Positions 1 through 20,000 of a stretch of DNA of 20,000 nucleotides are shown here, in pieces; position 1 is the first letter of the stretch; each line of letters opens with the position of its first letter. The position numbers and the translations under genes are program-made. Origin of the DNA: Reclinomonas americana ATCC 50394 (taxonomy: Eukaryota); contig PS015442.1 in the NCBI GenBank assembly GCA_048213135.1, positions 61,317 through 81,316 on the forward strand. The letters run 5' to 3'. The notes beneath the pieces were generated by a model. It was not told where the DNA came from and searched no databases. It saw only the letters and a program-made list of their open reading frames with translations.

Positions 1-61
1 AGCAGGGAATTCGGCAGCAATATTTGTTCGACCATCACCCACCGTGTCGTTTGCCGTGCAG

Positions 62-560
62 GTTGCTGGATGGTGTGGCCTCGCGCAGTCAAGTGGGCCA
101 ACTGAGTGCCGCTGTCAGTCGCAATGTAGGCAGTGGTCTGGCTCTGTTTGCCGACAAGGTGTGTGAACAGTATGTGTGTTTCGCACATGCGACAACCTTT
201 AACATGCTGTGCAGCAAAATCGTGTGATTCGCATGTTTGCTGCCAACGGCGGTGGTGAGTTGCAGAAACCTACAGTAGTGAGCGAGGCGATGTGCGTGTG
301 TACTCACTGCGCTTGCTCGCACAGGTCCTGCCACTGTGTCCACGGCATTCGGTTCGGGTTCGCCTGGCACCGCTGACGGCAGCTCTTCGACAGCCTCTGT
401 TGCGTCGTCTCATAGTCGCCTTCCACTCCTGCGAAAGTGTCACCCACATGTGTGTGCAAACAGTTCCGTTCGATGGTGGACTTGGCATTTTGGCCTGGCA
501 ACGACATGTTGTATGTGTCGGACCAGGATGCGAACACGATTCGAGCTGTCGTCTCATCTC
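62..560 (+). other. NHL-repeat (beta-propeller)-like segment of the polycystin-like protein
   Basis: Spliced peptide ...LFADKQNRVIRMF...VSTAFGSGSPGTADGSSSTASFRSMVDLAFWPGNDMLYVSDQDANTIRAV resembles the NHL pattern (GxxDGxxxxAxF...LYVxDxxNxxIR). Confidence 0.7.
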
Positions 561-3500
561 GTTGTGTGCACTTGTGTTCGAGTTTTTGGACTCTTCTCTC
601 TCGCTCATGCTTCATGTGTGTTGCACGCAGCCACCATCTTTTACGCCGACAAGTTGGTTCTCTTCAATGACACCACACCGTCGACCATTGGTCTCTACGG
701 GTGCGCTCTGGTGGACGTATCGGCCGACTCTAGCGCCTTCCGTGTGTTGAACAGCACCTCGGCCGCGCCAGTGACCACCATGAGCATCACCAGCGCCTTT
801 GTCAACAGTCGATCGCTCACCTTGTCGGTCCGCACAAACTTTGCTCTACCTGGCGTATATGTGATGCAAGTACGATGGTCGACATCGTCGCAGTACCTGA
901 CAGCATTCAACTTTACCGTCGGTGCGTACACTAGCACTTGCATACAGGAGACGCTTATCTGTCTCACACTTTGGTGACCTTGCTGATGTGCAGCGGAGAA
1001 GCCGCGTCCGTTGTGCGCCGACCTGACCACTGTGAGCGTGGCTGCTGGCGCGCAGACGTCCGTCACCGACGGTAGCAAGCCGACGGCCAAGTACGAGCCG
1101 TTTATGTCTTGTCGGTGGCTGGTGCAAAGTGCCACACCCTCCTCCACGTCGATCTTTTACACCATTGCACGGCTGGATACCGAGGCAAACAAGGACACTC
1201 TGCGAGTGTACAAGGACGGTGTGGAGTCGGCCGCCAACTTGCTGGCCACCTATTCTGGCAACCGCGCAGGGGCCTTCTTGGAAGTTGCCGGCTGTTGCGT
1301 TGATAGACTGCAGCTCTACTCGCTTCTCTTGTTCATCTACTCACGCGAAGCGGGCCGTGCAACGCAGCCTCGAAACTGTTGGTGGTGTTCGAGTCCGATG
1401 CCAGCAATCAGTACACTGGGTGGGAGATGCAAGTCTATGGTGCAGCCCCCTGTTGTCAACAAGCTGTGTTGCATTCATTCAGTCTTACCACCTATCACAG
1501 TTCCGCGAGGCCTGCAAGTGACGCTCTCCGGCGACGGTGGCTTCTACTCGTGGGGCGACAGTGTAAAACTGGCAGCCTCAGTCAACGACATGGACAGTTC
1601 GTCTGTGTTTGCGACGGTGCGTTAGCGGGCAGCTTTTGTCGTCCTGGTCGATGTACGTGTCTTGCTGATGTGGAAGTTGCTGGCAGGCGGTGTTGGCCAG
1701 CACCGTGTGGGATTGTGCCTACTACTCTCCGCTGGGCTCGGGTGCCCCCGAGGCGTGTGGTCTGTCGTTTGGATCGCCAGTGAGCAACACATTTGATGCC
1801 AGCAACATGCGGAACGGAACGTTGCGTGTCCCCCGTTGCTCGCACCGCCGACTGTCAACTTGCTGCTGAGATTTCCTTGTGTTCTCTCCGTCAAACAGCT
1901 ATGTGTTCTCCGTGACGGTGACACGCAGCAGCTACACGGCCACTGTCTCGTCGTCGATTACCTACGGTGCTGCCATGTCGGTGTATCTCTCGGTGGTGAG
2001 TAGTGTGCGCTCTGCTAAATTGCGTACCACATCGCTTGTTGTCATTGTATGTTGCTGACGGGCGGCTGGTGCAGCCGAGTGTGGGCGGTTCATCACTGCT
2101 TCGCAACTACATGGAGCCGTTTGTTGTGCGTGCAATGTTCCCGAATGGCGTCAGTGACGACATGGCCTCCATGACGACTACATTCGAGGTCACAAGTTGC
2201 GCACACGACGCATTGCAAGTTGTCGTCGTGTCTCCTTCCTTTGCCACTATTCTCAATTCGCTCCTTTCGTTTGTGAATGGCAGATCAAGGCACAAAGGCG
2301 GTAGTACCACTGGAAAAGTTCACTGTGCTGCGCAACTCGCGCTCACAGCCGATTGCACTGCGTATTGCTGCGGGTGTTCTCGAAGCCGGTGCCACCTATG
2401 ACTTTGCATATGCTGTCAAAGCTGGCAAGACGACCTGTTGCGTGGCACAATGCGGTGGTCTTCTGCAACGTGCAGCTGACGCGCGCGCGCATCGCACAGT
2501 GAACACAACTCTGGCGGTACAGATGCGATCGCTGCCGACAGTCAGTGGCACGGCCACGTCGTCGCCGCCGCTGGGCGTTGCTCGATCGACCACGTACACG
2601 CTGACGGCTCCGACTGCGACCAGCACAGACTCGGCACTGTACTACGCGTTCCTCTACACTCGTGTGTCCACAGGCGCGACCGTTCTTTTGGGCCTCCAGC
2701 TCAACTCCACGCTGGTGACCACTCTCGAGGCCGGTGACCCGAACGACAACTACAAGGTTCTCGTCCAGATGGAGGTCGTAGACGCCTATGGCGTTTCGTC
2801 CAAGTTGCGCATTGCGACATGTCACACTCTCCACTGTATTACCACTGTGTCACCCACTCATCCTCATGACAGAACGGCACTGAACACCACTGTCAACGTG
2901 GGCCCAATGACCAACACGACGGACGAATCGCTGCAGCAGCAGTTCCTGGCGGAGACCACTGATCTCGCCGCGCTGTCGCTGCTCGATTCCACCGATGCTT
3001 TGCGTCTGGTTGCTCGTGCACAGTTCACGCTGTCGATGCTCGAGGAGGGGGCAAGCCGGAGTCGCATCATGGCCGGTGGCTCGACTGTCAGTGCAGCTGT
3101 TGTCACCACGGCTGGTTTGCTGGGAACAGCGTCGACACTATTCCGCTTCGCCGACATGCCTCGTGCTTCGTGGGCACTGGCTTCGAGTGTGCAGATTGTC
3201 GCCGAGTTGCGTTAATTCGTGAGCGGTTGTGAACCAAGCTTGCACGTGTGCCTGACAGTGTCGGGTAGGACATTGCCGTCGCTGACGGCAACGAATCGCG
3301 TGAGCGTAGCTACGCAACTCACATCGATTGCCGAACTCATGGCCGCATCGTCGTACTTTACTCAGACCACGTCGAGTCAGAAGCTGATGACAATCGTCGA
3401 TCGCATTGCGTCTGCGCTGAGCGCGAGTTCGTCAGACAGCAGTGCGAGCGCCTTGATTGTGCGCCTGAACAAGCTGTCGCAGCAGCTGCTGACCAGCGTG

Positions 3501-6500
3501 GCCACCCTCAAGGTGAGCAGCCGTGTTTCCACTGTTTCCAGGGTGTGCGTGTCAGCTCAATAAGCGTATTCCTGCGGCAGGTGCCGGGTGAGGCTGCTAC
3601 TCGCTTCTCTGGCAGCACCTTTGTGATGGAGACGGCATTCTTCTCCACCGACGGCACTGGCTCCAGCGGAGTGCAGTTGGCCGACAACAGCTCGCCCACG
3701 TCTCTCTTGAATGCACTGGATTCACCATTTACTGGTGGCGCCGGCAGCTGGTCGCAACTGTCCTCGTCCACGACCTCTGCGCCGGAGCTGCGCGTTGCAT
3801 CGCCGCCGTCCTCGTCGACATTTGTGTTCCCGCGGTCGTACGTGTCGGCCTTTGGCACCTCTGGTGACACCACGTACGTGTCGACCATGTACAACTCGGG
3901 CTACAATCCGCACGATACGCTCGGCGCCGGCACGGCGAATCAGGCCAACAACAAGACCGCGCAATTGTTGACTTCAGTGCACACATTCAAGCTCATGGAC
4001 AGCGCCTCCAGCGAGATTGCGGTCACCAACCGGACTGAGCCATTCTACTTCCAAGTTGGCGGCACCAGCAACACGCTCTCAACGAAACTGGCGGCACAGT
4101 TGGTACGATTCGCCCGTCGCCTCTGTACACCAACCGTTCGTTCCCTTTTTACTTACTCTCTTGCTGTGTGCAGAACAACACTCTGCGCTACATTCAGGCG
4201 TGCAATCCGGGCAACTACACATACAGCGAGAACGTTCAGCTCGTGCCTCTGTTCGACATGTGCACCCAGGGACTGCCCTTCGCAGCCACCAACATGACGC
4301 TGGGCTTCAATGCTACCAGCGGTCTCACTGAGGTGCTGCCACAAGGCAACAACAGCACCAACAGCAGTAGCAGCAGTGCACTGCTCAACCCACAGCGGCT
4401 AGACCTGTGCGTGTATTGGTCTACGTCGACTGGCAAGTGGGACACCTCCGGTTGCAAGTCATACATGAAGGTGCGTGCACGTATGTGATTGAGCAAGTGA
4501 CCCGCAATTCCGTTCTCACACCCGCTCTTGGTGTGCATGCATACCACAGGTACAAGCCGGCACAGTTGTCAACGTGGTGTGCGCCTGCAACCACATGACC
4601 GACTTCTCGGTGGACGCCAGCGACATCTTTGACATTCAATTCACATTTGCCAGCCCGCTCGACATTAGCCAGTTCCCCGCCGGCACAGGCATTCTCAAGA
4701 TGTGGACCATGTGGATTCTTGGCGCTGTCCATTTGTTCTACGCAGTAGCCTGGTACGTTCTCTACCGATGGGACCGCAGCCGTGATCGCGTGCTGCGCAC
4801 GTACGAGGCCTTCAAGGTGCTGGCCAAGGAGCGGGTGCGTACTCGATACCTCGTTGTATAGGCTGCTGCTGCTCTTGCTGTCAGCGTGATCATGAGAGCT
4901 AACTGTGGTTGTCGACAGAGCAACACGCACAAACGCAGCCCGTTCTGCGGCAAGTTCAGCTTTGTCGAACTGGTGAAGGAGGTGTGGCGACACAAGTATG
5001 GAGTACGCGATGTGGCAGAGGTTTTGCCCGCTGGATACGCATTGCAGTTGCGGTACAACAACTGTCGCCACACACGAATTGAGTGTCGCTCACTCATTCA
5101 TTGTTCTCCCTCTGCTCCCCGTTTGCAGAGTGGATGGCGAACTGCAGCCGACCGGACCCGGCGCTGGCGGACGCTTGTCAGTCACTGACAGCTCGGCCGA
5201 CGCGAATTCACTGAGCGACGAAACTCGCAGTCCGAACTCTGATGCGGCCTCACCCACCGACATGCCCGTGCCGACTGTGGTCGCCCTTGGTGTCGGTGAT
5301 CGACGCTCATCGCGAGTCCCATCACCGCTGTTGCCAACGCAGCCACCCTCTGCCACCGTTGCCGAGCGAGTTCGGGGACACCGCCGATCAGTGTCGCTGT
5401 CGGAGACGGCTTTGCAGTGCGGCAGCTCGTGCTCCGATTTGCATGTCTCTGCCACCGACAGGGTGCGTGCTGTTGTGAGAAGTAGAAAGAAGGATTTGTC
5501 GACGGGAATGGAGAAGACTGACCAGGAGTGTGCGCAGGTGCTTGCAGCGGGCTCTACCGTTATTCAGGAGCAACGCAAATCGTCGGTGCTGGCGGCTGTC
5601 GACGGAGTTGATGTGGGCGCCTTGGTGGTGCGGACGCGTCCTCGCGGTCGCAGTCTGTCGCCAGGAAGGACCGGTGAGTGTTTTCATCGTCGTGCGACAA
5701 GAAAGCAATCAGCGCCTCATGTTTCTCCTTTGCGCAGAATCACCTCGAGTCCCGATGAGTCTGCAAGCCTTTGCTCTCCCCTTGGCGGAGCCCGTCTTTG
5801 GCGATGTTAGTGGCTCACGACGCATGTCGTCGATCGACAGCCCCGCATCGTCGTCAGTGGTGTCGGACTCGGCGCCGTTCATGCGACGCAATCGTCACGT
5901 GTCGGCTGATTCGGATCACGACTTGGTTCGTCCGCCGTTTGCAGTGTGTTGACGCTGCCGCTGACACGGTTTTAACCCCTTTCCGGTGCAGCTGTCGTGT
6001 TCCTCGCCAGCGAAAAGTGCGATTACTGCCAAGTGTGTCGGTGTTTCGATTCCGTCGCTGACAAGCGCCGACAAGGAGATTCTGTCACACACCGACATCG
6101 AGGCGGAGCTGGAGAGTACTCTGCGCCGTCACCATACCGTGGTGGCACGTTTCAAGGGTACGGCTGGCAGGAATGCAAAATGCGCTCAGCGAGTGATTCA
6201 TGTGGTTGTGGTGCAGGTGTTGTCAAACGCATCATTGAGGCGCAACGCAAACGAAATGCGCTGCTCAAGGCCGGCTCCAAGCTCACGCGTCTATTCAAGC
6301 ACGGACACACCTGGCTGGCCACCATGACGACGCGGCCGCTGGACAACTTCCGTCGCACCCAGAAGCTGACGGTTGCGTGCTGCTGCTGGCTTGCCATTTT
6401 CATGCTGCCGTTCCTGTTGCTCATGACGCACTAATGTGTATACAGGTTCTGTGGCTAGCCACCATTTGCTCACTGTACTTCAACACTGTGCTGGCTGGCC

Positions 6501-9388
6501 AAAAGGACTCATCGTTGCTGTCGACATTCTTCCAAGACATTATCATCGGCATCTCAATCGGTGAGGTCCTCGCCAGAGAGACTCCCAGCATCGCAGACAA
6601 CTCACTGCATATTTCTCTTGCCAGGTCTTACCATGATGCCCGTGTGTCTCTTGGCCAGCTTTGCATTCCGCTTCACCGCGCGAACGCCAACTGAGGACAC
6701 GTGGTTTGAGGCCGGTGAAAATCGTTTGCGTGCAGAGATGGTCGACGCTCTGCGCGAGGCGGCCGTGAAGGGCGCCACCAGCAACAACAACATCCACAGC
6801 AGCAGTAGCAGCAGCGGCGGCAGCGGCAGCGACTGGCATCAAGCCAAAGTTCCCACACTTGCGGTCGACGGCTCGGCCAGTGCTCGCCTCATTCTTGAAC
6901 GAGAGTGGCGCTCTGTGCAACGTGACGCGAAGTTGGAGAAAGGTGTGCATCGACAAACTGGCCGAAAGGTGTGATTCAGTTTACTCATCTGCATGTCGTG
7001 GTTCTGCAACAGTCGCCGCACTCGCAGCACCTTCTGACAACGATCAGACAACCGACTGCGCCGATCCCATGCGTCGCACGTCATGGGCTCCGAATTCTTT
7101 CACCGCAGGCAGTGCAGCATCAGAGGTGTGCATCCAGTGTCTTCGACATACTATGCAGGTTCTCATGTGGAGTGTGTACAGGCATCGCATTCGGCTGGCA
7201 GCTTTGGAGACCATGGTGCTCGTTCATTGCTATCCACGGTGATTCGCGTTCCGCGCTCCCGCGCCGACTCCGGCAGTGAGCTTGTGGTCAAAGCCAACCC
7301 TGCCGCTGAGATGAACATGTCGCTGCCTATCTCGTCGATCTTGGAGGTACTCGCGTGTTCGCCGAGGCTGACACAGAATTGGATAAGCTGCTAACTTGCT
7401 GCCATTGCAGACCCGTCGGTTCAGTGCCATTCGACCGGTGGCCAGTGTTGCCACTGCACGCAGTGTGGTACGTCGCCTTCACCTCCTTTCTTTTCTTTCA
7501 CACAGTTGGTGACTTGGTCGCAACGACAGTACGCGGAAGCTCCTCTTGCGCCGTCCAACCGCAAGGACTCCACTTGCGTTGGCACGGCAGCTGTTCAGCA
7601 GTTTGTCGTCACAGGTCCCAGTGTTCAGCCCCCGCCAGTCAATAATGGTGCGTGTGATACAGCCTGCCGTATGTTTCGAGTGCGTTTTTGTTAACTCACA
7701 GACACACGTAGTTCGTCATTCGCACAACGCCGACCCCGTCAATGTTGCCGAAGTCGATGACGATGAATCGCATGGCGGGCATGTGCTGGCGGTGCCGAGT
7801 CCGGCGCAGGGTGTCAGATTCAGCGCCGACCGGAACTCGCATTTCTTTGAGGACGAGTTTGCGGACGATGACGGGCAAGACAGGGCGGCGGATGATGTGG
7901 ACGAGGACGAGACGGACGCTGTGCGAGTTCATGCTGATGCTGGAGACTTGTGGGGCAAGCATTCCGGTCTCCCGAGCCTGGCGTCGGTGTTGGAGCGCGA
8001 CGAGATACCGTCCATCATTGTCTTGCGACCTGGCTACTACAAGCCATTCACGATTCCGGCAACGACACGCACACCAACCGGCACGCTGACCATCCGCGCC
8101 CTGCAGCCGAAGAAAGCCGTTTCGTGCTAGCATTTGCTTCTGCTGCTCGCACGGTCATTGCTTCTCACCTTCTCCACACAGATTGTTTGCGCACTGCGGT
8201 TCTCGAACAAGGGCGAGCGAAAGTTGGCGCGTTTGCGAGCACTGCAGGAAGCCAGCGAGGTGTGTTGGTGCTGCCAGGCGCTGTTTTCTCTTGTCGCATG
8301 TATTGATTGTGGACTGGCGAGCAGGAGTGGCACGATGTGTTGGAGGAGATGTTGGAGGGTCTGCCGCCGGCCATTTCCATTCACGTCAGTGATCCAGACG
8401 AGCGCACGGTGAGCAGCATGATGGTACATGCTGTGCGTTGTTTGTGATTGTCGCTCACTTTCCTCATGCGTCGCAGTCGGAGTCGCATGTCTTGCCTGGT
8501 TTGCCGTTGCCCGTGCGCTCTATTGAGCTTGCTGGTCTCGCGCTAGAGGCGTCCACCTGCGGCATCTCGGTGAGCAACGCCAGCTCTCAGTGCGGTAGCG
8601 GTGCCGACCGTCCAGCCTCCTCCTCCTCCTCGTCGTCCTCGTCCGCCTCTGCAGCCAGTGCGGTATGTTGTGAGACGATGGGCTACACTGTGCATTCCTC
8701 TCGCTCACATGATTGTCCGCTGCGCAGCGCCGATCCAGTATGTGTCGTGGGAACAATGCTCGTGGCAGTAGTCGGAGCCCACGCAACGCAAACTCGTACC
8801 TCGTGGAGATTTACAGCCACCACAACCACTTCCGCGATGTGCGCAATCTGGCGCTGTACGACTCGCCGCGCACATACGGCAGTTTGGTGACGCGAACCGA
8901 GGAGAATGTCAAGGTGGTGCCGCCGAAACCGACCAGGAAGCGGACGGTCACCAGTTGCGTTTTCGCCACCCTTTGCTCTTTGGTCATGTGGTCTCTGGAG
9001 TGCTAATTGTGCTCTTTGACCGGCAAACAGATCCGCTGTGGAGCCGTCTGAAGGCCCGACAGCTGCCGTACGCCATGGTACGTGTTGTTGGCCAGGTGTT
9101 GTCCACTGTGCTTTGTTGCTTATTTTCCTCGTGGCATTGCAGGTCTACGTTTCGTACTTTTTGATCTGGGCCACCGGCATCTTCCTGTCATACATGACAC
9201 TGGTGACGACGGCCGTGATGATTAACAAGATTGGCGAGGCGTCAGTGCTGCGTCAGTCGGCCGGCAGTGTGGCCGGTGACATTTTCATCAATGAGCCGAT
9301 CAAGCTAATCATCCTCTGGATGATGGGCCCGTGCTTCGTGCCCGCCGTGTTTGCTGACATTATCGCCCTCGTCGTCGGTCTAATCTAA
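62..9388 (+). CDS. 5'-partial polycystin-1-like (PKD1/REJ-type) membrane receptor, 37 exons in window, >2280 aa: NHL repeats, CUB, REJ, GAIN/GPS, TM1, long cytoplasmic loops, TM2-TM5/6
   Basis: Removing 36 GT-AG introns (159-214, 255-324, 399-463, 561-630, 922-993, 1294-1367, 1440-1500, 1617-1686, 1821-1898, 1996-2074, 2196-2283, 2437-2499, 2804-2872, 3206-3268, 3513-3580, 4103-4173, 4471-4549, 4835-4918, 5047-5128, 5463-5537, 5674-5737, 5926-5991, 6158-6216, 6372-6445, 6561-6624, 6943-7012, 7126-7181, 7347-7410, 7468-7529, 7648-7711, 8119-8181, 8260-8324, 8409-8476, 8663-8727, 8954-9030, 9078-9142) gives one continuous frame ending TAA at 9386-9388. Polycystin-1-like motifs: GPS, HTWLATMTTRPLDNFRRTQKLT before TM2, DIFINEPIKL in TM5. 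Confidence 0.85.
1011..1439 (+). other. CUB domain of the polycystin-like protein
   Basis: C...TDGS...YEPFMSCRWLV...RLDTEANKDTLRVYKDG...LLATYSG...KLLVVFESDASNQYTGWEMQV follows the CUB consensus (YxxxxxCxWxI, DTExxxDxLxVYDG, LxVxFxSD, GF/W). Confidence 0.85.
1501..2910 (+). other. REJ (PKD/REJ-like) region
   Basis: PTVSGTATSSPPLGVARSTTYTLTA...DSALYYAFLY...TTLEAGDPNDNYKVLVQMEVVDAYG matches the REJ C-terminal module (PxxGxAxxTxFxL, LxYxFxY, LPxGD...VxVxDxYG). Confidence 0.75.
3581..4612 (+). other. GAIN domain with GPS autoproteolysis motif
   Basis: VPGE...TSVHTFKL...EIAVTNRTEPF, then CVYWSTSTGKWDTSGC...VVCACNHMTDFS (GPS consensus CxxW..W...GC...CxCxHL/TxF), followed by TM1 (MWTMWILGAVHLFYAVAWYVLY). 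Confidence 0.9.
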
Positions 9389-9549
9389 TAACATCCTCGC
9401 ACCCCGGCGACGACGGCATCATAGAAAAAAGAAAGAGAAAAAGTAATAGAAAAACTGGAGGAATGAAAATGTGGCATGTACATAATGACAAAATAAGTGG
9501 GCACGAAAAAGAAAGAGAGGTATTCGGAATGGGAGCAGACACGGCGGCA

Positions 9550-11624
9550 TTACGGTCGCCGAATGATAATGTAGGCCCACAGGGCCAGCAGCATAATGGC
9601 CACCAGCAGTGCGATTCGACTGGTCAGTCCCGACGACCCTGTTGTCGCCCACCAGCAGGTGTGAGCAGAAAATGTGCGTTAGCAAGGACGCACACAGAAC
9701 AAACGCACCACTTGTTCGTTTGCCAGCAGCAAACACGCTAACTGAGCTGGCGATGGAGGTGGAGGCCACGAGGATCTGCGACCGAGCGGCAAGCACAGCC
9801 GGATCCGGCAGTGGGCTGCTGTTGTCGCCCTCATCGTCCGAATCACCCTCCTCGTCGTCACCATTGTCCTCGGCCTCGTCAGTGCTTTCGTCGGCCGCCT
9901 TGGATGCCTTCTTGGACGCTCTCCGCGACTATACAAAGCGAGGTGAGCAGCATGTAAGAGACTTGACGTACGGGCGCGCGCGCGCGCAACTCTTGTGGGT
10001 GGCAGCGGGGCAATAGAGACGTGTGTCACTGGCATGCGGTGAGCCTGGCACACAGTGATGCGACGAAGCGACGACGTCTTCATAACGGCGACCTTGCCGC
10101 TGGAGAAACCGACGGCGCAGTGCTCTCCCGACGGACTGCCAAATGGACGGTGGCAGTCAGTGCGCTGTTGGTGCAGGGCAAAACGGAAAGTCAACACGAA
10201 CACATACCTCACAGTCAGCGCCGTGGCGGCCGGCAGCAGAGTGACACGCGAGTCGCGCAAGCCCGACGGCTTGGGTTTCGCCTCTGCACGCACAGATATC
10301 AGCAGACAGATTTTCACCCACGCGCACTCGATCGCTCACTCGCCTCTTGGTTGTGGGTTATCGAGATCCGCCATAATGTCGCGCTTCACCAGAATCGAAT
10401 TCTTCTTGCCGTGCGACTCGAGGACAAGCAAGTACACGGACTCAGCATCGGTGCAGAATCTGCATGTCGCGTCAGACTCGACAACTCTCTCGCACAAGAA
10501 CAAGAGGGCGACAAAACTCATTCGCCCGTGTAATGTACTCCGGGGTAGTGGCGGCGTACGCGCAAATGTGAACGAGATCACTCTTCTCGCTCCGCAGATT
10601 CAGGCTCCACACCCTGGTAATGCGATCGTATCCCGACGTGGCAATCTGTGCGCATCCCAACATCATTGTTCACCTGACCGGTTTGCGCGCACAAGGTTCA
10701 ACACGCGTTACCAGCACTTGACTCGACGACAACTCCATGCACGACACACTCCAGATGGACGTGGTCTGATCCGTCGGCTCGTGCGCCTTCGACACCTCCA
10801 CCAGCGTCTTCACTCGCCACTCACCATTGCTGGCGTCTGCGCCCAGAGACAACGCTGTTAACACGCGGCAGCACACAAAACACAACCAGCCAGCCACTCA
10901 ATCGCGCACCACGTGCCACATGCTGCACGATGAGATCACCGGCCTCGTTGGCCGCACACAGCAGTCGCGGTGCGGCGCAGTACGTGCTCACCGACTGAGC
11001 ACGAGGAGTGGTGAGCACAGATCAAAACAAAGACGAGATCAGTGGGATCGTCACCTGGTGATCCAGCTCCTGCTTGTCAAGCACCTCATTCGGCAACGCT
11101 TGTTCGCGCTCCAGCTGCATGCTGCCATCCTCACTGGGCAACAAAAGCGCGCATAAGATGACAGCATCTGCAACACTCTCTCAACACGACCTGCGCACCT
11201 CAGCTTGATGGAGATGATCTGTGAGCGCTTCGGCAGCACACACAGCAGGTGTGGACTGTGCGGGCGGATCTGTGAAGAGAGAGAGAGACAAGTGAGCGCG
11301 TGTGCGCGAGTGTGAAGAGTACACGTGTGACTGACCGGATGCACGCCCCACACACACTCGTTTCCAGTGCGCAGTGCTGCACGCTGTGCAAGGTGTTGAT
11401 CCACGGGATCAAAGTCGTAAATCACCTGCGCACATGCACATGCACACACGCATGAGATTGCGCGCGCGCGCGCTCTTCTTCTTTTGCATCACACACACAC
11501 ACACCACTCCATTCTCAATGCCAGTCTTGGCTGCGCCACCACCGCCTCCACACGCCAAGGTGCGATAGTCAAGCCAGCGTGTGTAGTACAGTGGAAAGGG
11601 CGCGTAGTCGAGAGGTGAGCTCAT
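9550..11624 (-). CDS. SEC12: SEC12/PREB-like Sar1 guanine nucleotide exchange factor (WD40 propeller plus C-terminal TM anchor), 12 exons
   Basis: The N-terminus APFPLY...GGGGGAAKTGIENGV is the Sec12/PREB K-loop signature. WD40-like segments IATSGYDRITRVWSL and AATALTVSPSGEHCAVGFSSGKVAVM...AHRMPVT. The last exon encodes a TM tail IALLVAIMLLALWAYIIIRRP* (stop 9550-9552). Confidence 0.9.
10284..10343 (-). other. GC-AG intron in SEC12
   Basis: Donor AGAG|GCGAGT. Only this phase-1 donor keeps the frame leading into the WD40-like AATALTVS-PSGEHCAVG. The GT 4 nt downstream gives the wrong frame. Confidence 0.7.
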
Positions 11625-11683
11625 TGTCGCAACAATGAAGGAAAACGAATTTGCGGTGTGCTGTTGGTTTCACTACGCCTGTC

Positions 11684-14600
11684 TCACTGTCGCTCGGAGC
11701 CAAAGGTCGAGTCCAGCAGCGAGAGATTGCCACTTCCCGCGCCGCCTACATCCATCATGTCGAGTAATTCCACGGGTGTTGGAGCGCGCTGGAGGTGCTC
11801 GAGGTGAGAAAGAAGATGCACTGCGTGGTGCAGGAATAGAGCCTCACCTCGTTTAGTCTGCGCCGCAGCTCGGCGACGCGCTTTTGTGTCTCCACCAGCT
11901 CCTTGCTCTTGTCGTCGAGCAGCTGTTGGAGAACGAGCTCGAGGCCGGCTGGGGCGGCGCGGCCGGTGCTTTCCAGCCACTCACGATCTCGAACGCCTGC
12001 AGGTGACGCAAATTAAAATGAGCTCGATGCAGTGCGGCGGGAAGCCAGCGACGGTGATGGGGGAGGGGACCTTGGTTGACACTTTGCAGACGGCCGAGAA
12101 TTGACTGGAAAGTGCCGACATCCGACGCCTTGGCAATCGCCTCCAGCTCCACACATCGCTGATGTTCTGCAACAAGAAGTGAGATTGTGACTTGGTGCTT
12201 CTGGTCGCCTCGCACGCGCATCACTAACCATGTTCCTGGTACCGCTGCAAGTGGGGACTCAGCCGGCGCCAGAACTCCATCTGCGCACGGCGTCTCTTGA
12301 TTTGGTGTTTCACTTCGGCGCCTGCTTTTGGTTTGGCCGGGCGCGTCTTGCCGAACGACGCAATCTCGTCGTCGAGACGCGGCAGCACCACGTTCTGCAT
12401 CATCTCGAACTGCGATCGCCATATGCAGTACTGCGAAACCACACCCACTTCAGCATCACAGGGCAAGTGTGAGAGGACGAGCGACCTCGACGCACCTGGT
12501 GAATGAGGTCATCCTGATCGCGGTAGTACTCGCCCAGCGCGTGCAGATACCGACACCGCGCCGACACGAAATACTCGTGCAGGTATCGATTCATGATGGG
12601 TCGTTGTTCCTTGCTCTGTGACCCCACACGAATGAGCAAAAAACGAAACGCCCTTGAGGATGCTTTGCAAACTGCGCGCACCAATTGCTGCAACATGTCG
12701 TTCTCCTCGGCCATCGCATGCAGCTCCTCACGCAGCTGCTCCCGTTGCATCTGCGTGGCTGCGCGCATGTCGGGAATGCGTTTTTTCATGGCCTGTACCG
12801 CCCGCGAACGTGAGACACGCAGACACACAAGCGGGTGGCTGCGAACACACCTCCACTTCGGCATACTGCTGCGCTTCGGTGTTGGCACAGCTCTCACGCC
12901 ACCGCACGAGCGTTCGCAATCGCTGTCGTGCCGTCTCCAGCACATTGGTGTCGGCCAACTACGACACGCGCGCCACACGTGAGCCAGGAGCGGCAACTTG
13001 ACAAGAACGCACACACACACAACAAGACCTGTCGCTTCACATGCTCGTTGGCGTATCGCAGTCGGCGCGTGTCGTTCTCCAGACTGGCGATCGTCGCCGG
13101 CAACTCGTGATCGATCCGCCGCTCCACCACCTCCAACTCATGCACCAACTCTCTCCTCTGCTGCGCCTCCTGCCGCGCCCGCTCCTCCGGCGACATGCTC
13201 TCAATCGCAATCTCCTTGCGCAGCCGCTCCACATTCTCGCTCGCATCCTCCACTTGCCGCCGCCGATCATCGACCATCGACCGCAACATCTGCGCCTTGT
13301 TCGTCAACTGATCGTTGCGGGCACGCGCGCTCTGCACCTGCACCGACAGATCATGATACGTATCTGCACCACAGTCTATCAGCATCGCCTATCGATTGAT
13401 GAGATCCCAATGCCACTCTCGCACTCACTCTGCAGTCCCACAAGTGGATCGCTGTCTTCTTGACTTGCGCCACCACCACGAGCTCCCTGCGCAGCTGCGC
13501 CTCCAACTCCACCACCAGCTGTGCGACCAGTGGCATCCAGTGACGACGACGTGCGCGTCAACCGCACAGTGTACCGTCGCAGTGCTATCCACGAGTGAGC
13601 AAGTGTGTGTGTAAGAGTGCACGTGAAAGAGTGCGTGTGCACACCTTCCACCCACTCTCCACTGGCAGTTCGCGGAGGCGAGAGTCGCTTCCGCAGACGC
13701 GCATCGATTGCTCGCTGTGGAGCCACCGCCGGCACTGGTGCAGCTGTGGCAGCTGCAGCAGTGCCCAGTGCAGCAGCAGCACTCGTGGGAGAGTGACTGA
13801 GGAGAGTGGTGCGCGGGGAAGGCGTGCGTGGAGTCGGTGGACCTCCTCCTGCTCCTGCTCCTGCACTTGCTGCTGCGCGTTCACTGCCCATGCGCATGAT
13901 GCTCGACCATTCAAGAGAGGACGACGCGGAGCTGTTAGTGCTCATGCTGCTGATATGTTTTATGAGCGGGCGATTGATCGATCGCGTCAATGATGGGTTC
14001 TGCGTTGTAGAGCTCCCATGTCGAGCTCTGTGCAGCCTGATTGGTGCGCTCCCATTCTGTGCTGAGTGAGGAACACGTGTTGTTTCGTCGCGCATCTTGT
14101 TCTTCATGAGAGCGGGCGTGCGGCCGTCCAGTGACTCCCAGTGCGACCGACGACGACTTGTCGAGCTGCGTGAATGGGCGTAAGGCCCCCCTTGCGCTCA
14201 CTGCGTGTATACAAGTCACCTGCGCTTACCTGCCACCACTCCCAACAAGTCCTTGCTACTGCTGCTGCCGCCCAGTGGCGGAAGCTTACTGGGTGCTCTG
14301 TTGATTCCCCCCTGCTGTTGCTGTTGTTGCTGTTGATACCGTTGAGGACTGCTGGCACCTGCACCTCTGCCTGCGTGGATTCCCTCACTGGTGGACTGTG
14401 CTTGCTGTTGTTGCTGTCGTCCTCGTGGAGTCAGCAGCAGTGAGGCACCTCCGCCTTGTCCACTGTTGCTGCCCTCGGCTCCTTGCGCAAGAGGATCCAA
14501 CTCGATGGGCAGTGGACGAGAGCGGATGATACTCTACTCATGTGTGCGTAAGTGGGCGTGAGAGGCAGGGAGTGAGAGAGCGGGCGCACCTGACGAGCGG

Positions 14601-14864
14601 CCTTTGACTCGCGCAGTGTCTGTTTCAACGCACGCACAGCATGATTGCGTCGTGACTGTTTGTGTAACACACACGAGTGAGACACACGAGAGGAGACTCA
14701 CACGCGTGTGTGTGCGTGTTGTGTCTGCAAACCGCTGAGGACTGGAAGGGCGCAGGTGGAGTCGACACCACTCGTTCCACATCGTCGCTGCCAGTGGCAC
14801 CGCGGCGGCCTCCTCCTCGTGACTCTTTGTCGCTGTCGGAGTCTGCGCTGGCGGAGCACCCCAT
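11684..14864 (-). CDS. Hypothetical protein, about 13 exons: N-terminal MGCSAS acylation-type motif, long S/G/Q/A-rich low-complexity region, C-terminal coiled coil
   Basis: ATG at 14864. Exons join in frame through short GT-AG introns to ...LQNTYHDLSVQVQSARARNDQLTNKAQMLRSMVDDRRRQVEDASENVERLRKE...QREQLREELHAMAEENDMLQQL...KSKELVETQKRVAELRRRLNE...SERQ* (TGA 11684-11686). The junction near 14166-14230 is the least certain, so this could be two genes. Confidence 0.6.
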
Positions 14865-15173
14865 TTGCGCGCTCGACTGTTGTGTGAGTGAGAGTGTGTG
14901 TGTAATTGCGTCGGTTGAGTGGTTTGTCCGATTGTATCAGCGAGCCGGCACAATACCGAAGGTACAACTAATAATCCAAAGAGCAACGTAGCTGCGTGAA
15001 GATCACCATCTCGAATGAGCAGAAACAGAGACATCACAGGAACTGTACGAGAGAAAGCAGGAATGCACAAAGCTGGTGTGGATTCTACGACACGTTTGTT
15101 TATGTGGTCGCCGTGCCCTTTTTAAAAAGAAAAGTATGGGCAAAGCTCTCTCCTTCTCCCTCCCTCTGCCTCC

Positions 15174-16749
15174 TCAGTGGATGATCATGCCGGCCTCCTT
15201 GTCCTTGCGGAATAAGCTGGCGATCCTCTTGAACAGGTTGACCTGCTTGTTTTTCCGTGGAGCTGTACATGTGCATGCATGCGGAGTCAGGAAATGAATC
15301 GCCTGGGTGTATGCAAGAGGGTGCGTACCATCGTCGGCGCCCGGAAGCGACAGCTCGGTCACCGACAGCGAGATGAAGAAGCCAAACGGAACCTGCAATG
15401 CACAGTCGAGTTTAGGAAGAGGGAGAGGAGATGACGGCAAAGGAGGAGAAGAGCGACGAGGGAGGAGGAGGAGGAGGAGGAATAGAAGAAGAAGAAGAAG
15501 AAGAAGAAGAAAAGACAACAGCAACAGCAACATCGACTACGACGACGACGACAACAACAACAACACCGACGACGACGACGACAACAACGACAACACCAAC
15601 GACGACGACAACTACAACAACAACAGCAACAACAACAACAACAACAACAACAACACCAAGAACTAGAAGACGAAGAGGAATAAGGGCACAGAGAAGAAAA
15701 ACCACCACCACCCCCACAACGACGATAACAAAATGAGAAGACGAAGAAAGCGAAGAGGGAGACAGACAGTTGACCGTCAGCTCTGCAGTCGTTACTACGC
15801 ACCATCCACACGGCGTAAAAGTAGAAGCACAGAATGTCGGACATGGTGTACTCCAGACCCTCGGGCGACACGAAAAAGTTGTACCACAACAGGTGGCTGA
15901 CCACAAAGCACACTGTCGCCGTCGCCAATCGCTCTCAGTGTCAGCCCGTCAACGCAATACTCACACACAGACAAACGCACCACACGAGCCAATGAACGTG
16001 ACACCGCTGAGCACGAGCAAAACACAGTCATCAGCGACAATGTGAGGCAGGCACACAAGCAGGCAACACACAATCGCACCGGTAATCAAAGAACGGATAC
16101 CGCCGCAGCAGGCTGTTGTAGCACAAGTGCGCACCGATGCCTGACACGCAGAATGAGTCACAACGCTACGGCATGCAGTCGGGCAAAGGGGTCTCTCACC
16201 GAATGCACAGGCGATCAGTGGCATGCCATCAAACAACCAGTGCAACGCATGCAGCCCGACGACCACCTGTGCGTGCGAGAGAGTGAGTGTGTGCAAGAGT
16301 GTGTGTGAGAGAGGCAGCACGCACCCAGATAGAGTACTTAAGCGTGTTGCGGAAAATGTATGTGTACTCCTCTGCCAACTCGGCCAGCTGTGAACGAAAT
16401 TGAGGTGAGTGAGCGTGTGAGACTGAGTGCACAGAGAGGCATGCGTGTCAGAGCGCAACGTAATACAAGCCGCATGCTGAGCAGAGAAGAGAGAGAGAGA
16501 GAGCGCGCGTGTGAGTGCCATTGCCAACACACACACACACGCAAGCGACAATGAGCAACGCACCCAAGCACAACGCAAGGAACGCCACTGCCACGTACAG
16601 CGACAAGTACGACAGGATACTGTGAGCGATGTGTGTGTCAGTGAGTGAGCACACAGAGGGCAACAACGCATCTCTCTCTCTCAGTCACACACACGCACAC
16701 GCGCGTACACACATGCAACCAGAAGACGCAACGTGAAGAAGTAGCCCAT
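15174..16749 (-). CDS. TEX261: TEX261/Svp26 family COPII cargo adaptor (multi-TM), 10 exons
   Basis: Exons 16749-16733, 16619-16564, 16476-16460, 16387-16325, 16266-16200, 16140-16080, 16006-15981, 15912-15803, 15392-15329, 15262-15174 give [39 protein letters not shown]...YPFF...FIGSCVCFVVSHLLWYNFF...VWMVPFGFFISLS...LP, which carries the family motifs [13 protein letters not shown] and WxVPFxxFxSLS. Confidence 0.92.
15458..15657. repeat. Compound trinucleotide microsatellite (GGA)n-(GAA)n-(GAC)n/(AAC)n inside TEX261 intron 8
   Basis: Directly visible runs of ggaggagga, gaagaagaa, gacgacgac and aacaacaac within the 410-nt intron 15393-15802. Confidence 0.95.
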
Positions 16750-16828
16750 CGATGCTCTCACAGTCGCACAGTCGCACGCGATCAGTTGATTGTGTGTCTG
16801 TCTGTCTGTGTGTGAGTGACTCTTTCTG
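16750..16828. promoter_or_regulatory. Very short divergent intergenic region, putative bidirectional promoter (TEX261 / mnmE)
   Basis: Only 79 nt separate the head-to-head ATGs. The region contains a CACAGTCG tandem duplication and (TCTG)n/(TG)n. Promoter function is inferred from gene geometry only. Confidence 0.4.
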
Positions 16829-18903
16829 ATGTTGGCCAGTGTGTTTGCACTGTGCTCTGGCGGCTCTGGACGGTGCGGACTGAGTGTGACACGTGTCTCT
16901 GGGCCACAGGCCATGTGGATCGCGCGTGCCTTGTGCAGAGGAGGAACAAAGTACACAAATGCACTTGTCTCTCTGTGTCTCTCTGTCGCTCATGTGCGTG
17001 TGTGTGCAAAGACCGCTTCTTGTGCAGTCGTCGGGGAGCATGGTGCATGTGCGCGACTTTGTGCATCCGCAGAGTGGCGAGTTGATTGATCGCGGCATTC
17101 TGTTGCAGTTCTTTGGTCAGTCTCTCTCTATTGTCTCTCTCGTGCGCGTGTGCTGAGTGTGCGTGCATGTGTGTGTGCAGCGCCGAGGAGTTACACAGGG
17201 GAGCATGTTGTGGAGTTTCATACGCATGGGAGTGGCGCAGTGATTCGGGCACTGCATGCGGCGTTGAGTGCGTTGCATGGGCGGCGAGTGAGTGCTGACA
17301 GGGACGAGGAGGAGGAGGAGGTGTTCAATGTGCGACCAGCGGAGGCGGGCGAGTTCACGAGGAGAGCGTTTGAGAATCAGAAGCTGGATTTGACCAAGGT
17401 GGAGGGCGTGGCCGACCTCATTCATGTTGCGTGGTGTGCATGGCGCGGTCGACTTGTGTGTGTGTGTGTCTCTCATGGGTGTTTTGTCGTCGCGCGTCAG
17501 GCAGGCTGAGACCGAAGCGCAGCGCAAGCAGGCGTTGCGGCAAATGACGGTCTGCATGTTGTTGTTCGCCGGTGCGGTCTTCGTGTGCATGCATGCTCAT
17601 CGACTTTACAGGGCCAGTCGTCGGCCGAGATCCAGGCGCTGCGACGCGAGCTCAGCACGGCGTTGGCGTACATTGAGGCGTTTATCGACTTTGGCGACGA
17701 TGAGGATATTCCGGCGGAGACGCGCGATCTCGGTTGGTGACTGGTGACTGATGATGGTCTGTGGTTGTTGTTGACCACGCCTTGCAGTGCTCGACAAGAC
17801 CCGCAGTGTGGCGTCGAGTATTGCACGCGTGCTGAAGGATCATCGTCGCGGCATGGCGGTTCGACAGGGCGTGCACGTGGCGATTGTGGGGCCACCAAAT
17901 GCTGGCAAGAGCACGCTGATGAACTTGCTCGGTGTGTCTGCGTGTCATACGTTGATCTTGGTGTCTGTCATCTCACCGTGAAGCCTGCAGCTCAGCGAGA
18001 CGTGGCCATGGTCAGCAACCGGCCTGGAACGACTCGCGATGTGATCGAAGTGACGCTCGATCTGGGCGGCTACGCCACGGTGTTGGCCGACACGGCAGGT
18101 ATTCGTGAGGCCACGGACGATCCACTCGAGCGCGAAGGCATGAACCGAGCACTGGCCAGGTGCATTGACCCGCGGTTGCATCGCAAGGCTGAAACCTCCT
18201 CACCGAGTTCCGCAAACAGATTTCACGACGCCGATCTCCGACTGCTGGTGTTGGACGCCACGCCGCTGCTCGACGCCAATGTCCCCATCAGCGATTGGAG
18301 AGTACCCGAATCACTGGCGCACTTGCACACCGAAGACACACTGGTGGTGTGGAACAAGTGCGATGCTCAGGATCGATCAAATGTCGACGTGGACAACACA
18401 ACGGCACCGATTGCCATCAGTTGTCACACGCAACATGGCGTGGATCGCTTTCTGCGCGTGTTGACCAAGCAGATTGCCGCGCGGTGTGTCTTGTCATGTG
18501 ACTCGCTCTGCCACGCCACCAGGAGCTGACCGATTCCATGTACGTGCAGGCTAGAGACCACGGAAGTGTCGTCGATTGTCGTCACTCGCGAACGGCACCT
18601 GCATCACTTGCGCGAATGCTTGTCGCACACGCAACGTGTGATTGATGGTGCGTGTGTGTGTGATGAATGAGACTTTCCTCTGCATGGGCTCATCGTCGCG
18701 CAGAGTGGAGCGTGGCAGAGCCGGTGATACTTGCCGAAATGCTGCGAATGGCCATGAACAGGTCCGTGTGCGCCTTACCGCCTCCTCCCTCGATTTCCAT
18801 GGCACTCACCTGTGCGACTGACAGCCTCGGTGCGTTCACCGGCAAGGTCGACGTGGAACAGCTGCTGGATATCATCTTTCGTGATTTCTGCATCGGCAAA
18901 TGA
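16829..18903 (+). CDS. mnmE: tRNA modification GTPase MnmE/TrmE (GTPBP3/MSS1-like), 11 exons; start codon uncertain
   Basis: Spliced product has [72 protein letters not shown]1 GPPNAGKS, G2 PGTTRD, G3 DTAGIR, G4 NKCD and the C-terminal FCIGK* (TGA 18901-18903). Introns: 16951-17011 (uncertain), 17116-17180, 17426-17504, 17550-17611, 17733-17787, 17932-17990, 18160-18219, 18484-18549, 18648-18703, 18762-18824. Confidence 0.95.
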
Positions 18904-19150: not shown

Positions 19151-20000
19151 ACAACAGGCGGTGCGGCGGCCGGTGCCGGTGCTGGTGCACTGCTGCTTCC
19201 GCCCGGCAAATCGGAAAAGAAGATGTCGGTCTGGGCGACCACGCGATTAGGTGGCACCTCGCCGCGTTCAATGGCCTCCTGGATTCGCCGTTGTTCCTCC
19301 TGCTGAGCAGCCTGTCTCCGCGCCGTCTTGGTGGCCTGTGTTAGGTCGGCGAACTCAAAGGAGAAGTCGGGCTGATTGACAATATCCCAGTCCATGTCGT
19401 CGCCGACAATGAGCTGGAAGCGCTTGAAGAGGGCCTCGCCAATCAGCAGGATCTCGTCAGCGTCCAGTGTGCCCGTCAGCCTAGCGCGCAGGAGTTTGTG
19501 AGGAGACAGCAATGAGAGAAATAGGCGGTTCCACAAGCTTACTTGTTCATGTGCTGCAGAATCTCGTCAAACTCCAACTCCTGCGCCATGATGATCGACT
19601 TTTGCTTGAACAGAATGGCCAGCGCCATGAACACCGGCCAATGGTACGTCGGCTCGTGCGTCCAGATCACCTGATTTGCGGTACGTCAGGACGTGACAAC
19701 AACAACAACGGTGAAGAGAGAGACGGCAGTTCGCGTACGCTACCTCCCACAACCGCATCACAGCGACAAAGTCAAACTCGCGCTTGAAATGCACAATGAT
19801 CCACCGGAAGGCGAAGAAGAAGTTGGAGGCGTTGTGTGTGTCTGCGATAGGGCGCCAAAGGGGGTTGAGGCACGAAACGCCTGCTCAGCAGGCAAGAACT
19901 GGCACGAACCGAGGTACATGAACAACTCGTGATCGAGCAGTTTGCACAGATTCACGACTTGCATCAACTGGGTGTGAATGCCCTGGCCGTCGCGCAAAAA
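19151..20000 (-). CDS. Partial TBC-domain Rab GTPase-activating protein, TBC1D15/17-Gyp7-like
   Basis: Introns 19842-19909, 19671-19743 and 19481-19542 give DGQGIHTQL...LLDHELFMYLDTHNASNFFFAFRWIIVHFKREFDFVAVMRLWEVIWT...VFMALAIL...FDEILQHMNKLTGTLD, matching the TBC1D15/Gyp7 C-terminal TBC pattern (FxFRWxxxxFKREF...RLWEVxW, FxEILxHxNxL). Runs off the window at the 5' end and into the gap at the 3' end. Confidence 0.9.

Follow-up and report, generated by a model that had tools for sequence, protein, structure and literature searches.

We analysed the splice sites of a 20-kilobase (20-kb) stretch of DNA from Reclinomonas americana ATCC 50394 (contig PS015442.1, positions 61,317 to 81,316), referred to as the window throughout and numbered here from its first base. 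The window has a G+C content of 51 to 60%, one 236-N gap and six closely packed genes on both strands, and our models of these genes contain 81 GT-AG introns, mostly short. The subject of this work is the 5' splice sites (donors) of these introns: beside a main class of 64 donors (class A), 17 donors (class B) begin with GTTNNG without a G at +5, and carry the main donor word displaced by one base into the intron. Such one-base-shifted donors account for about one fifth of the introns in the window (17/81), and all counts given below refer to these 81 introns.

The gene models were curated by hand from the sequence and then verified by machine. A preliminary chain search, which used GT, AG, an open frame, codon usage and intron length and was run without a donor matrix, proved noisy (merged introns, skipped exons), and was kept for scaffolding and for a donor-blind check only. 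In about nine cases of tandem donors, the donor following a G was chosen, the same rule that had been applied in an earlier, sequence-only reading of this DNA. The spliced open reading frames run to a stop codon, the window edge or the gap. Introns occur at a density of 4 to 5 per kb, with a median length of 65 nucleotides (nt), and 80 of the 81 span 38 to 113 nt. The six genes are as follows:

61..9388, plus strand: giant membrane protein gene (CUB, REJ, GPS; Pfam matches), cut at the window start; 36 introns; open spliced frame of 2288 codons
9549..11624, minus strand: SEC12-like WD-repeat gene with a C-terminal membrane anchor; 11 introns; open spliced frame
11693..14864, minus strand: coiled-coil gene; 12 introns; model uncertain in the low-complexity N-terminal half (about 13430-14864)
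15174..16749, minus strand: TEX261/Erv26-like gene; 9 introns; open spliced frame of 189 codons; Pfam Erv26 match on one exon (E-value 0.051)
16829..18903, plus strand: mitochondrial-type MnmE (tRNA modification GTPase) gene; 10 introns; open frame; matches to TrmE_N, MnmE_helical and MMR_HSR1; homologues found
19151..20000, minus strand: TBC-domain gene; 3 introns

Two donor classes and the base before the cut

The sequence-only reading had placed GTTGCG at 14 donors and close variants of it at 8119, 561 and minus 10517; all 17 words are present at these positions, and our independent curation arrived at the same totals of 81 introns and 17 class-B donors (14 GTTGCG, and one each of GTTTCG, GTTTTG and GTTGTG). 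As that reading also held, they are spread over four genes and both strands: the giant CUB/REJ/GPS, MnmE, TEX261/Erv26-like and SEC12-like genes. The class-B introns are listed below, with a vertical bar marking the cut, the effect that retention of the intron would have on the frame, and those donors that were picked by the donor-blind search:

399..463, plus strand: T|GTTGCGTCG; giant gene; 65 nt, phase 0; retention gives a frameshift; no class-A-type alternative nearby
561..630, plus strand: C|GTTGTGTGC; giant gene; 70 nt, phase 1; retention gives a frameshift
1294..1367, plus strand: T|GTTGCGTTG; giant gene; 74 nt; splits the CUB domain (CUB match on the upstream exon); retention gives a frameshift; donor-blind pick
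1821..1898, plus strand: C|GTTGCGTGT; giant gene; 78 nt; retention gives an in-frame stop; donor-blind pick
2196..2283, plus strand: A|GTTGCGCAC; giant gene; 88 nt; retention gives a frameshift; 106 frame-keeping pairs, none class-A-type
2437..2499, plus strand: T|GTTGCGTGG; giant gene; 63 nt; in frame and stop-free; CTGAC branch, CAG end; donor-blind pick
2804..2872, plus strand: A|GTTGCGCAT; giant gene; 69 nt; in frame and stop-free; donor-blind pick
3206..3268, plus strand: A|GTTGCGTTA; giant gene; 63 nt; CTGAC branch 12 nt before TAG; retention gives an in-frame stop; donor-blind pick
5047..5128, plus strand: A|GTTGCGGTA; giant gene; 82 nt; retention gives a frameshift; no class-A-type alternative
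6372..6445, plus strand: G|GTTGCGTGC; giant gene; 74 nt; the only one after G; retention gives a stop and a frameshift; no class-A-type alternative; donor-blind pick
8119..8181, plus strand: C|GTTTCGTGC; giant gene; GTTTCG, 63 nt; retention gives an in-frame stop; donor-blind pick
8954..9030, plus strand: A|GTTGCGTTT; giant gene; 77 nt; retention gives a stop and a frameshift; donor-blind pick
17426..17504, plus strand: T|GTTGCGTGG; MnmE; 79 nt; junction DLIH|AET, with homologue alignment; donor-blind pick
16620..16732, minus strand: C|GTTGCGTCT; TEX261/Erv26-like gene, intron 1; 113 nt; codon-usage test; donor-blind pick
16388..16459, minus strand: C|GTTGCGCTC; TEX261/Erv26-like gene, intron 3; 72 nt; retention gives an in-frame stop; codon-usage test
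10460..10517, minus strand: A|GTTTTGTCG; SEC12-like gene; GTTTTG, 58 nt; retention gives a stop and a frameshift
9929..9990, minus strand: A|GTTGCGCGC; SEC12-like gene; 62 nt; retention gives a frameshift

Class-A donors have the consensus (A/T/C)G|GTNNGT and most often read G|GTGCGT. Position by position (n = 64), G stands at -1 in 61, +3 is occupied by G (41), A (12), C (6) or T (5) and +4 by C (31), A (17), T (14) or G (2), and the donor closes with G at +5 in 53/64 and T (36) or C (16) at +6. In class B (n = 17) we find T at +3 in all 17, G at +4 and C at +5 in 15 each, G at +6 in all 17, and T (12) or C (4) at +7; the absence of +5 G and presence of +6 G that had been claimed for this class is seen in 17/17. 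The proposal that |GTTGCGT is the G|GTGCGT word slid one base into the intron fits the bases on either side of the cut. The invariable +3 T is what a shifted register requires, class-B +6 G and +7 T mirror class-A +5 G and +6 T, and the class-B -1 base (A7 C5 T4 G1) resembles the class-A -2 base (A23 C15 T20 G6; Fisher p = 1.0), not the class-A -1 base (p = 5e-13).

The same displacement emerges when class B is scored with a class-A matrix over positions -3 to +7. In the normal register class B averages -6.3 bits, against +8.0 for class A itself, and when slid by one base its mean is +3.3 bits; once the single G-to-T column is dropped, the individual slid sites lie between 5.5 and 9.8 bits (class-A mean 6.2). 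When columns +1 and +2 were omitted, shifts from -2 to +3 other than the one-base slide were never positive. Class B is also the more uniform of the two, 14 of its 17 members sharing one hexamer, against 13/64 for the commonest class-A hexamer.

The link to the preceding base is strong, with G at -1 in 1/17 class-B donors (6372) and in 61/64 of the others (Fisher p = 4.7e-13). It persists in a worst case where every ambiguity is set against it, namely when six tandem class-A choices are replaced by their non-G alternative and the four ambiguous class-B sites by their class-A-type alternative (G at -1 in 56/68 vs 1/13; p = 4.2e-7). The sequence-only reading had phrased this link as a donor reserved almost wholly for exons that end in a base other than G; this stands as a description, and there is a simpler way to read it, in that the class-B -1 base occupies the place of class-A -2, a position at which G is scarce as well (6/64). 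With the coding background as reference, class-B -1 is only moderately poor in G (expected 5.1, seen 1, p = 0.018).

A few class-A donors deserve a mention of their own. Three do not follow G, and all three follow A: A|GTACAC at 16951 on the plus strand, A|GTGAGT at minus 13428 and A|GTAAGC at minus 19542, the last two of which fit standard U1 well. Five others carry T at +3 together with +5 G and all follow G (5926 and 17733 on the plus strand; 12228, 14732 and 19909 on the minus strand), with the hexamers GTTCGT (twice), GTTGGT, GTTAGT and GTTTGC. Since these five keep +5 G and follow G, +3 T alone does not define class B.

Beyond the donor, the two classes look alike. A GT start, an AG end and a kept frame are found in 17/17 class-B and 64/64 class-A introns; a YTNAY branch motif is present in 14/17 and 56/64, at a median distance to the 3' end of 15.5 and 17 nt, respectively; intron length and the YAG end are shared, the -3 base of the class-B acceptor being C or T in 17/17. 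Like U12-type introns, class B is a second intron class with its own donor word beside a main class. Unlike them, it has neither the donor nor the branch motif (RTATCCY in 0/81 donors, TCCTTRAY in 0/17 class-B introns), and its branch and 3' end resemble those of the main class, by which a U12-type identity is excluded. An identity as introner-like (transposon-derived) copies was rejected as well: local alignment of intron bodies gave similar scores within class B (mean 8.4, max 14), between classes (mean 8.0, max 19) and within class A (mean 7.5, max 19). Class B consists of U2-type GT-AG introns with a displaced-register anatomy that is clear and statistically strong in the window.

Support for the class-B introns, and other features of the window

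Retention of 15 of the 17 class-B introns would cause a frameshift or an in-frame stop, and the donor-blind search picked ten class-B donors (1294, 1821, 2437, 2804, 3206, 6372, 8119, 8954, 17426 and minus 16732). We screened every frame-keeping GT/GC-AG pair around each class-B site as an alternative. Most sites lack a frame-keeping alternative with a main-class donor close by. At three sites no alternative at all has a main-class donor, and at most of the others the alternatives remove large parts of exons or need a poor acceptor. Nearby alternatives include G|GTGTGC at 17434 in MnmE and C|GTACGT at minus 9971, the latter competing with minus 9990 through a later acceptor. The donor at 561 is ambiguous with T|GTGTGC at 564, both candidates following a non-G base, and minus 10517 has an in-frame alternative, A|GTACAT at 10538, which also follows a non-G base.

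In MnmE, the sequence-only reading took the conserved junction DLIH|AET to fix the cut, and this was borne out: a protein search with a single exon found only bacterial-type MnmE, and three of these homologues (P0001, P0002 and P0003) show ADLxxAET over the junction in an ungapped alignment. The alternative donor at 17434 with an acceptor at 17500 would insert four residues, and sliding both cuts of the 17426 intron by one base gives the same messenger RNA (mRNA). The same role had been given to the junction GLYY|LAEL of the TEX261-like protein, for which a search of the exon against 1.84 billion protein representatives returned no homologue. At the 5' end of this gene, the path through the class-B donors scores +0.27 bits per codon, close to the rest of the gene (0.28), and four alternatives score -0.16 to -0.88. 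The gene also has a 17-nt micro-exon (16460-16476, minus strand), flanked by a main-class intron on one side and a GTTGCG intron on the other.

The distribution of the word itself offers a further view. Counted on the genes' sense strand, GTTGCG marks 14 donors, appears at two further places in exons and is absent from the inside of introns, and antisense to exons it has 11 occurrences (binomial 0.011); this avoidance in sense exons is the pattern expected of an active splice signal. Two ways of explaining the displaced word away were tried and rejected. Were the 5' cut at G|TT and the 3' cut moved on by one base, the mRNA would stay unchanged for only 3/17 introns, and the introns would have AGN as their end; an assembly error of G to T is not consistent with the frames, which fit a cut before the G and not after it.

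The remaining features of the window concern its genes at large. Their layout is very compact: the TEX261-like and MnmE genes diverge from start codons spaced by 80 nt (16749-16829), and other neighbouring gene ends are separated by about 160 nt (9386-9549) and about 70 nt (11624-11693). The GPS motif of the giant gene is interrupted by an intron (Pfam), and the name SEC12-like is our own reading, the Pfam beta-propeller matches being weak. The giant protein has more than 2288 residues, and its exon at 3581-4102 found no relative among proteins of 306-2000 residues. A protein search with the TBC exon found no relative either, and two metagenome scans for related loci, one of which covered the giant protein, found none. 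The longest of the 81 introns, of 410 nt (15393-15802, minus strand), is rich in trinucleotide microsatellites (GAA, CAA and GAC runs). The donor at 7468 on the plus strand has two in-frame acceptors, giving an intron of 38 nt (end 7505, after a pyrimidine run) or 62 nt (end 7529), and in the coiled-coil gene G|GTAAGC and G|GTGACT stand in tandem at a spacing of 10 nt (14219-14229, minus strand), the second alone of these donors keeping the long downstream frame.

How the displaced donors may be read

The explanation that we favour, and to which we would give a little better than an even chance, is that the class-B sites are the true 5' ends of ordinary introns and form a second donor class that is read in a one-base-shifted register. 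The main class would be read as (not G)G|GTNNGT, and the second class would present the same word one base further in. The first component to recognise the donor, perhaps the 5' end of the U1 small nuclear RNA (snRNA) if humans are a guide, would read the intron's first G in place of the exon's last G, would tolerate a U where the intron's first G usually stands, and would otherwise pair normally. The cut made by the catalytic core could then fall before the only available GU, one base upstream of what the register predicts. We infer that U1 acts as the reader, that both classes share one spliceosome and that the class extends through the whole genome. A constitutive genome-wide class, again of about one fifth of introns, that relies on a divergent U1 5' end or on a second U1-type snRNA is a plausible extension to which we would give somewhat less than an even chance. 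As for the earlier proposal that the shifted register is a routine class, its anatomy and its share of 17/81 stand, for the window.

Several observations weigh against this reading, and the first of them comes from pairing with U1. Our calculation used a human-type U1 5' end as printed in PMC4856993, which may not be that of this organism. Class-A donors reach a mean best duplex of -6.3 kcal/mol with it, in the canonical main register in 62/64, and class-B donors a mean of -1.4 kcal/mol with no consistent register, the best duplex lying in the +1 register in 4/17 and in an unrelated register in 7/17. The C at class-A +4, equivalent to class-B +5, breaks the helix with this U1. As class-B duplexes with human-type U1 are both weak and inconsistent, simple pairing to a standard U1 does not explain class B. 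Either the U1 of this organism differs, or there is a second U1-type RNA, or much of the recognition falls to proteins or to U6; one of these three must hold. The weak pairing fits the idea of an altered machinery, and is not evidence of what differs. The other observations concern the boundaries. All junctions were derived from genomic sequence alone, and only 81 introns from 20 kb are at hand; four of the 17 sites have a competing solution (561, 17426, minus 10517 and minus 9990), and about nine tandem-donor choices were made by the rule of the sequence-only reading. The introns at 2437 and 2804 are not forced by the frame, and rest on their signals and on low codon scores, reading through them giving -0.40 and -0.37 bits per codon, respectively, which is in the lowest 3% of giant-gene windows. 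Both TEX261 sites rest on codon usage, and 956 frame-keeping paths without class-B donors exist at the 5' end of that gene.

Could class B instead have a reader of its own? A second U1-type snRNA, or an unlike U1 5' end, fully complementary to GUUGCGU and acting within its own recognition particle, would account for donors with almost no pairing energy to standard U1 in any register and for the greater uniformity of class B, and variant U1 genes are known in humans (PMC3561869, PMC10870369). However, an Rfam search of the 20-kb window matched no family and found no snRNA gene, and the exon- and intron-side statistics fit a single reader in two registers equally well. We regard such a dedicated reader as unlikely.

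A bulge offers another route to the same letters. U1 could pair normally with G+1 and U+2, one U (+2 or +3) could bulge out, and pairing could resume on GCGU; the letters GU-U-GCGU fit this arrangement, and for human donors pairing with a bulge at +3 (or +2) is established (PMC4856993). In a bulged register, however, the -1 base would face its usual U1 base and G would be favoured there, whereas the -1 base of class B behaves like a -2 base and is G in one intron. It is because the preference for -1 G is lost, and because -1 takes on the composition of -2, that the data favour a displaced register over a bulged U, and we consider the bulge quite unlikely.

That some or many of the 17 boundaries are simply wrong, owing to other donors or acceptors, to retention or to unusual cuts, the class being inflated by the choice of frame-keeping GT-AG pairs, is an explanation that draws on the boundary points listed above (derivation from sequence, four sites with competing solutions, two sites not forced by frame, and the 956 paths at the TEX261-like 5' end), but we hold it to be very unlikely, given that the frames place one and the same hexamer at 14 boundaries, against just two other occurrences in sense exons, that the donor-blind search recovers class-B donors, that the MnmE junction agrees with its homologues, that the competing solutions mostly also lack -1 G, and that the worst-case test still gives p = 4e-7.

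Known systems and significance

The closest parallel to a displaced register is human: Roca and Krainer reportedly described, in 2009, a few dozen GUUAAGU-type sites that pair well with U1 when shifted. Like class B, such human donors have a GU followed by U at the cut, a poor fit in the normal register and a good fit when moved by one base, and the intron's first G replaces the exon's last G. Unlike them, class B makes up 17/81 introns in four genes, carries the word GUUGCGU, which is unstable with human-type U1, and shows a link to the -1 base that is near-absolute in our sample. It is established that U1 reads some human donors in a register moved by one base (PMC4856993; review PMC9311317), and this is presented as one of several noncanonical registers, among them registers with a bulged U that are likewise established for human donors. 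The bulge registers (Roca et al. 2012, as cited in PMC4856993 and PMC9311317) are close enough that GU-U-NNGU can be drawn with one bulged U; unlike class B, which loses its preference for -1 G, they keep -1 opposite the same U1 base.

The main class has a parallel of its own. Outside chromosome 2, the donors of Ostreococcus lucimarinus are strictly GTGCGT(G) (Irimia and Roy 2008, PMC2483917), and the class-A consensus GTGCGT is this same atypical word. Ostreococcus is intron-poor and has one rigid class, whereas the window has 4 to 5 introns per kb and a looser GTNNGT main class beside a displaced class; the window has far too many introns to come from this alga, and no displaced donor class is described for Ostreococcus in the available text of PMC2483917. 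Plasmodiophora brassicae, considered for its G+C content and compactness, was set aside as well, since the 86 introns tabulated in PMC2483917 average 55.7 in length (sd 7), and those of the window have a median of 65.

Our full-text literature searches, whose coverage leaves out most subscription journals and supplements, found no description of such a routine displaced class; the work found on the shifted register was human, apart from one paper on a tunicate, which suggests such a register as possible. We know of no genome that makes routine use of a noncanonical donor register, and if RNA data confirm class B, this would be the first known genome of that kind. There would also be a practical side, as gene finders built on one donor matrix would overlook or misplace roughly a fifth of the introns in this organism. 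More broadly, class B would provide a natural system of many sites for studying how the spliceosome fixes the cut independently of first recognition, and the roles of U1, U6, U5 loop 1 and Prp8 in cut choice would become testable with two classes in one cell. If the genome-wide extension of our reading is true, donor recognition and the choice of the cut, elsewhere seen to part only as a rare exception, would be routinely uncoupled in this organism.

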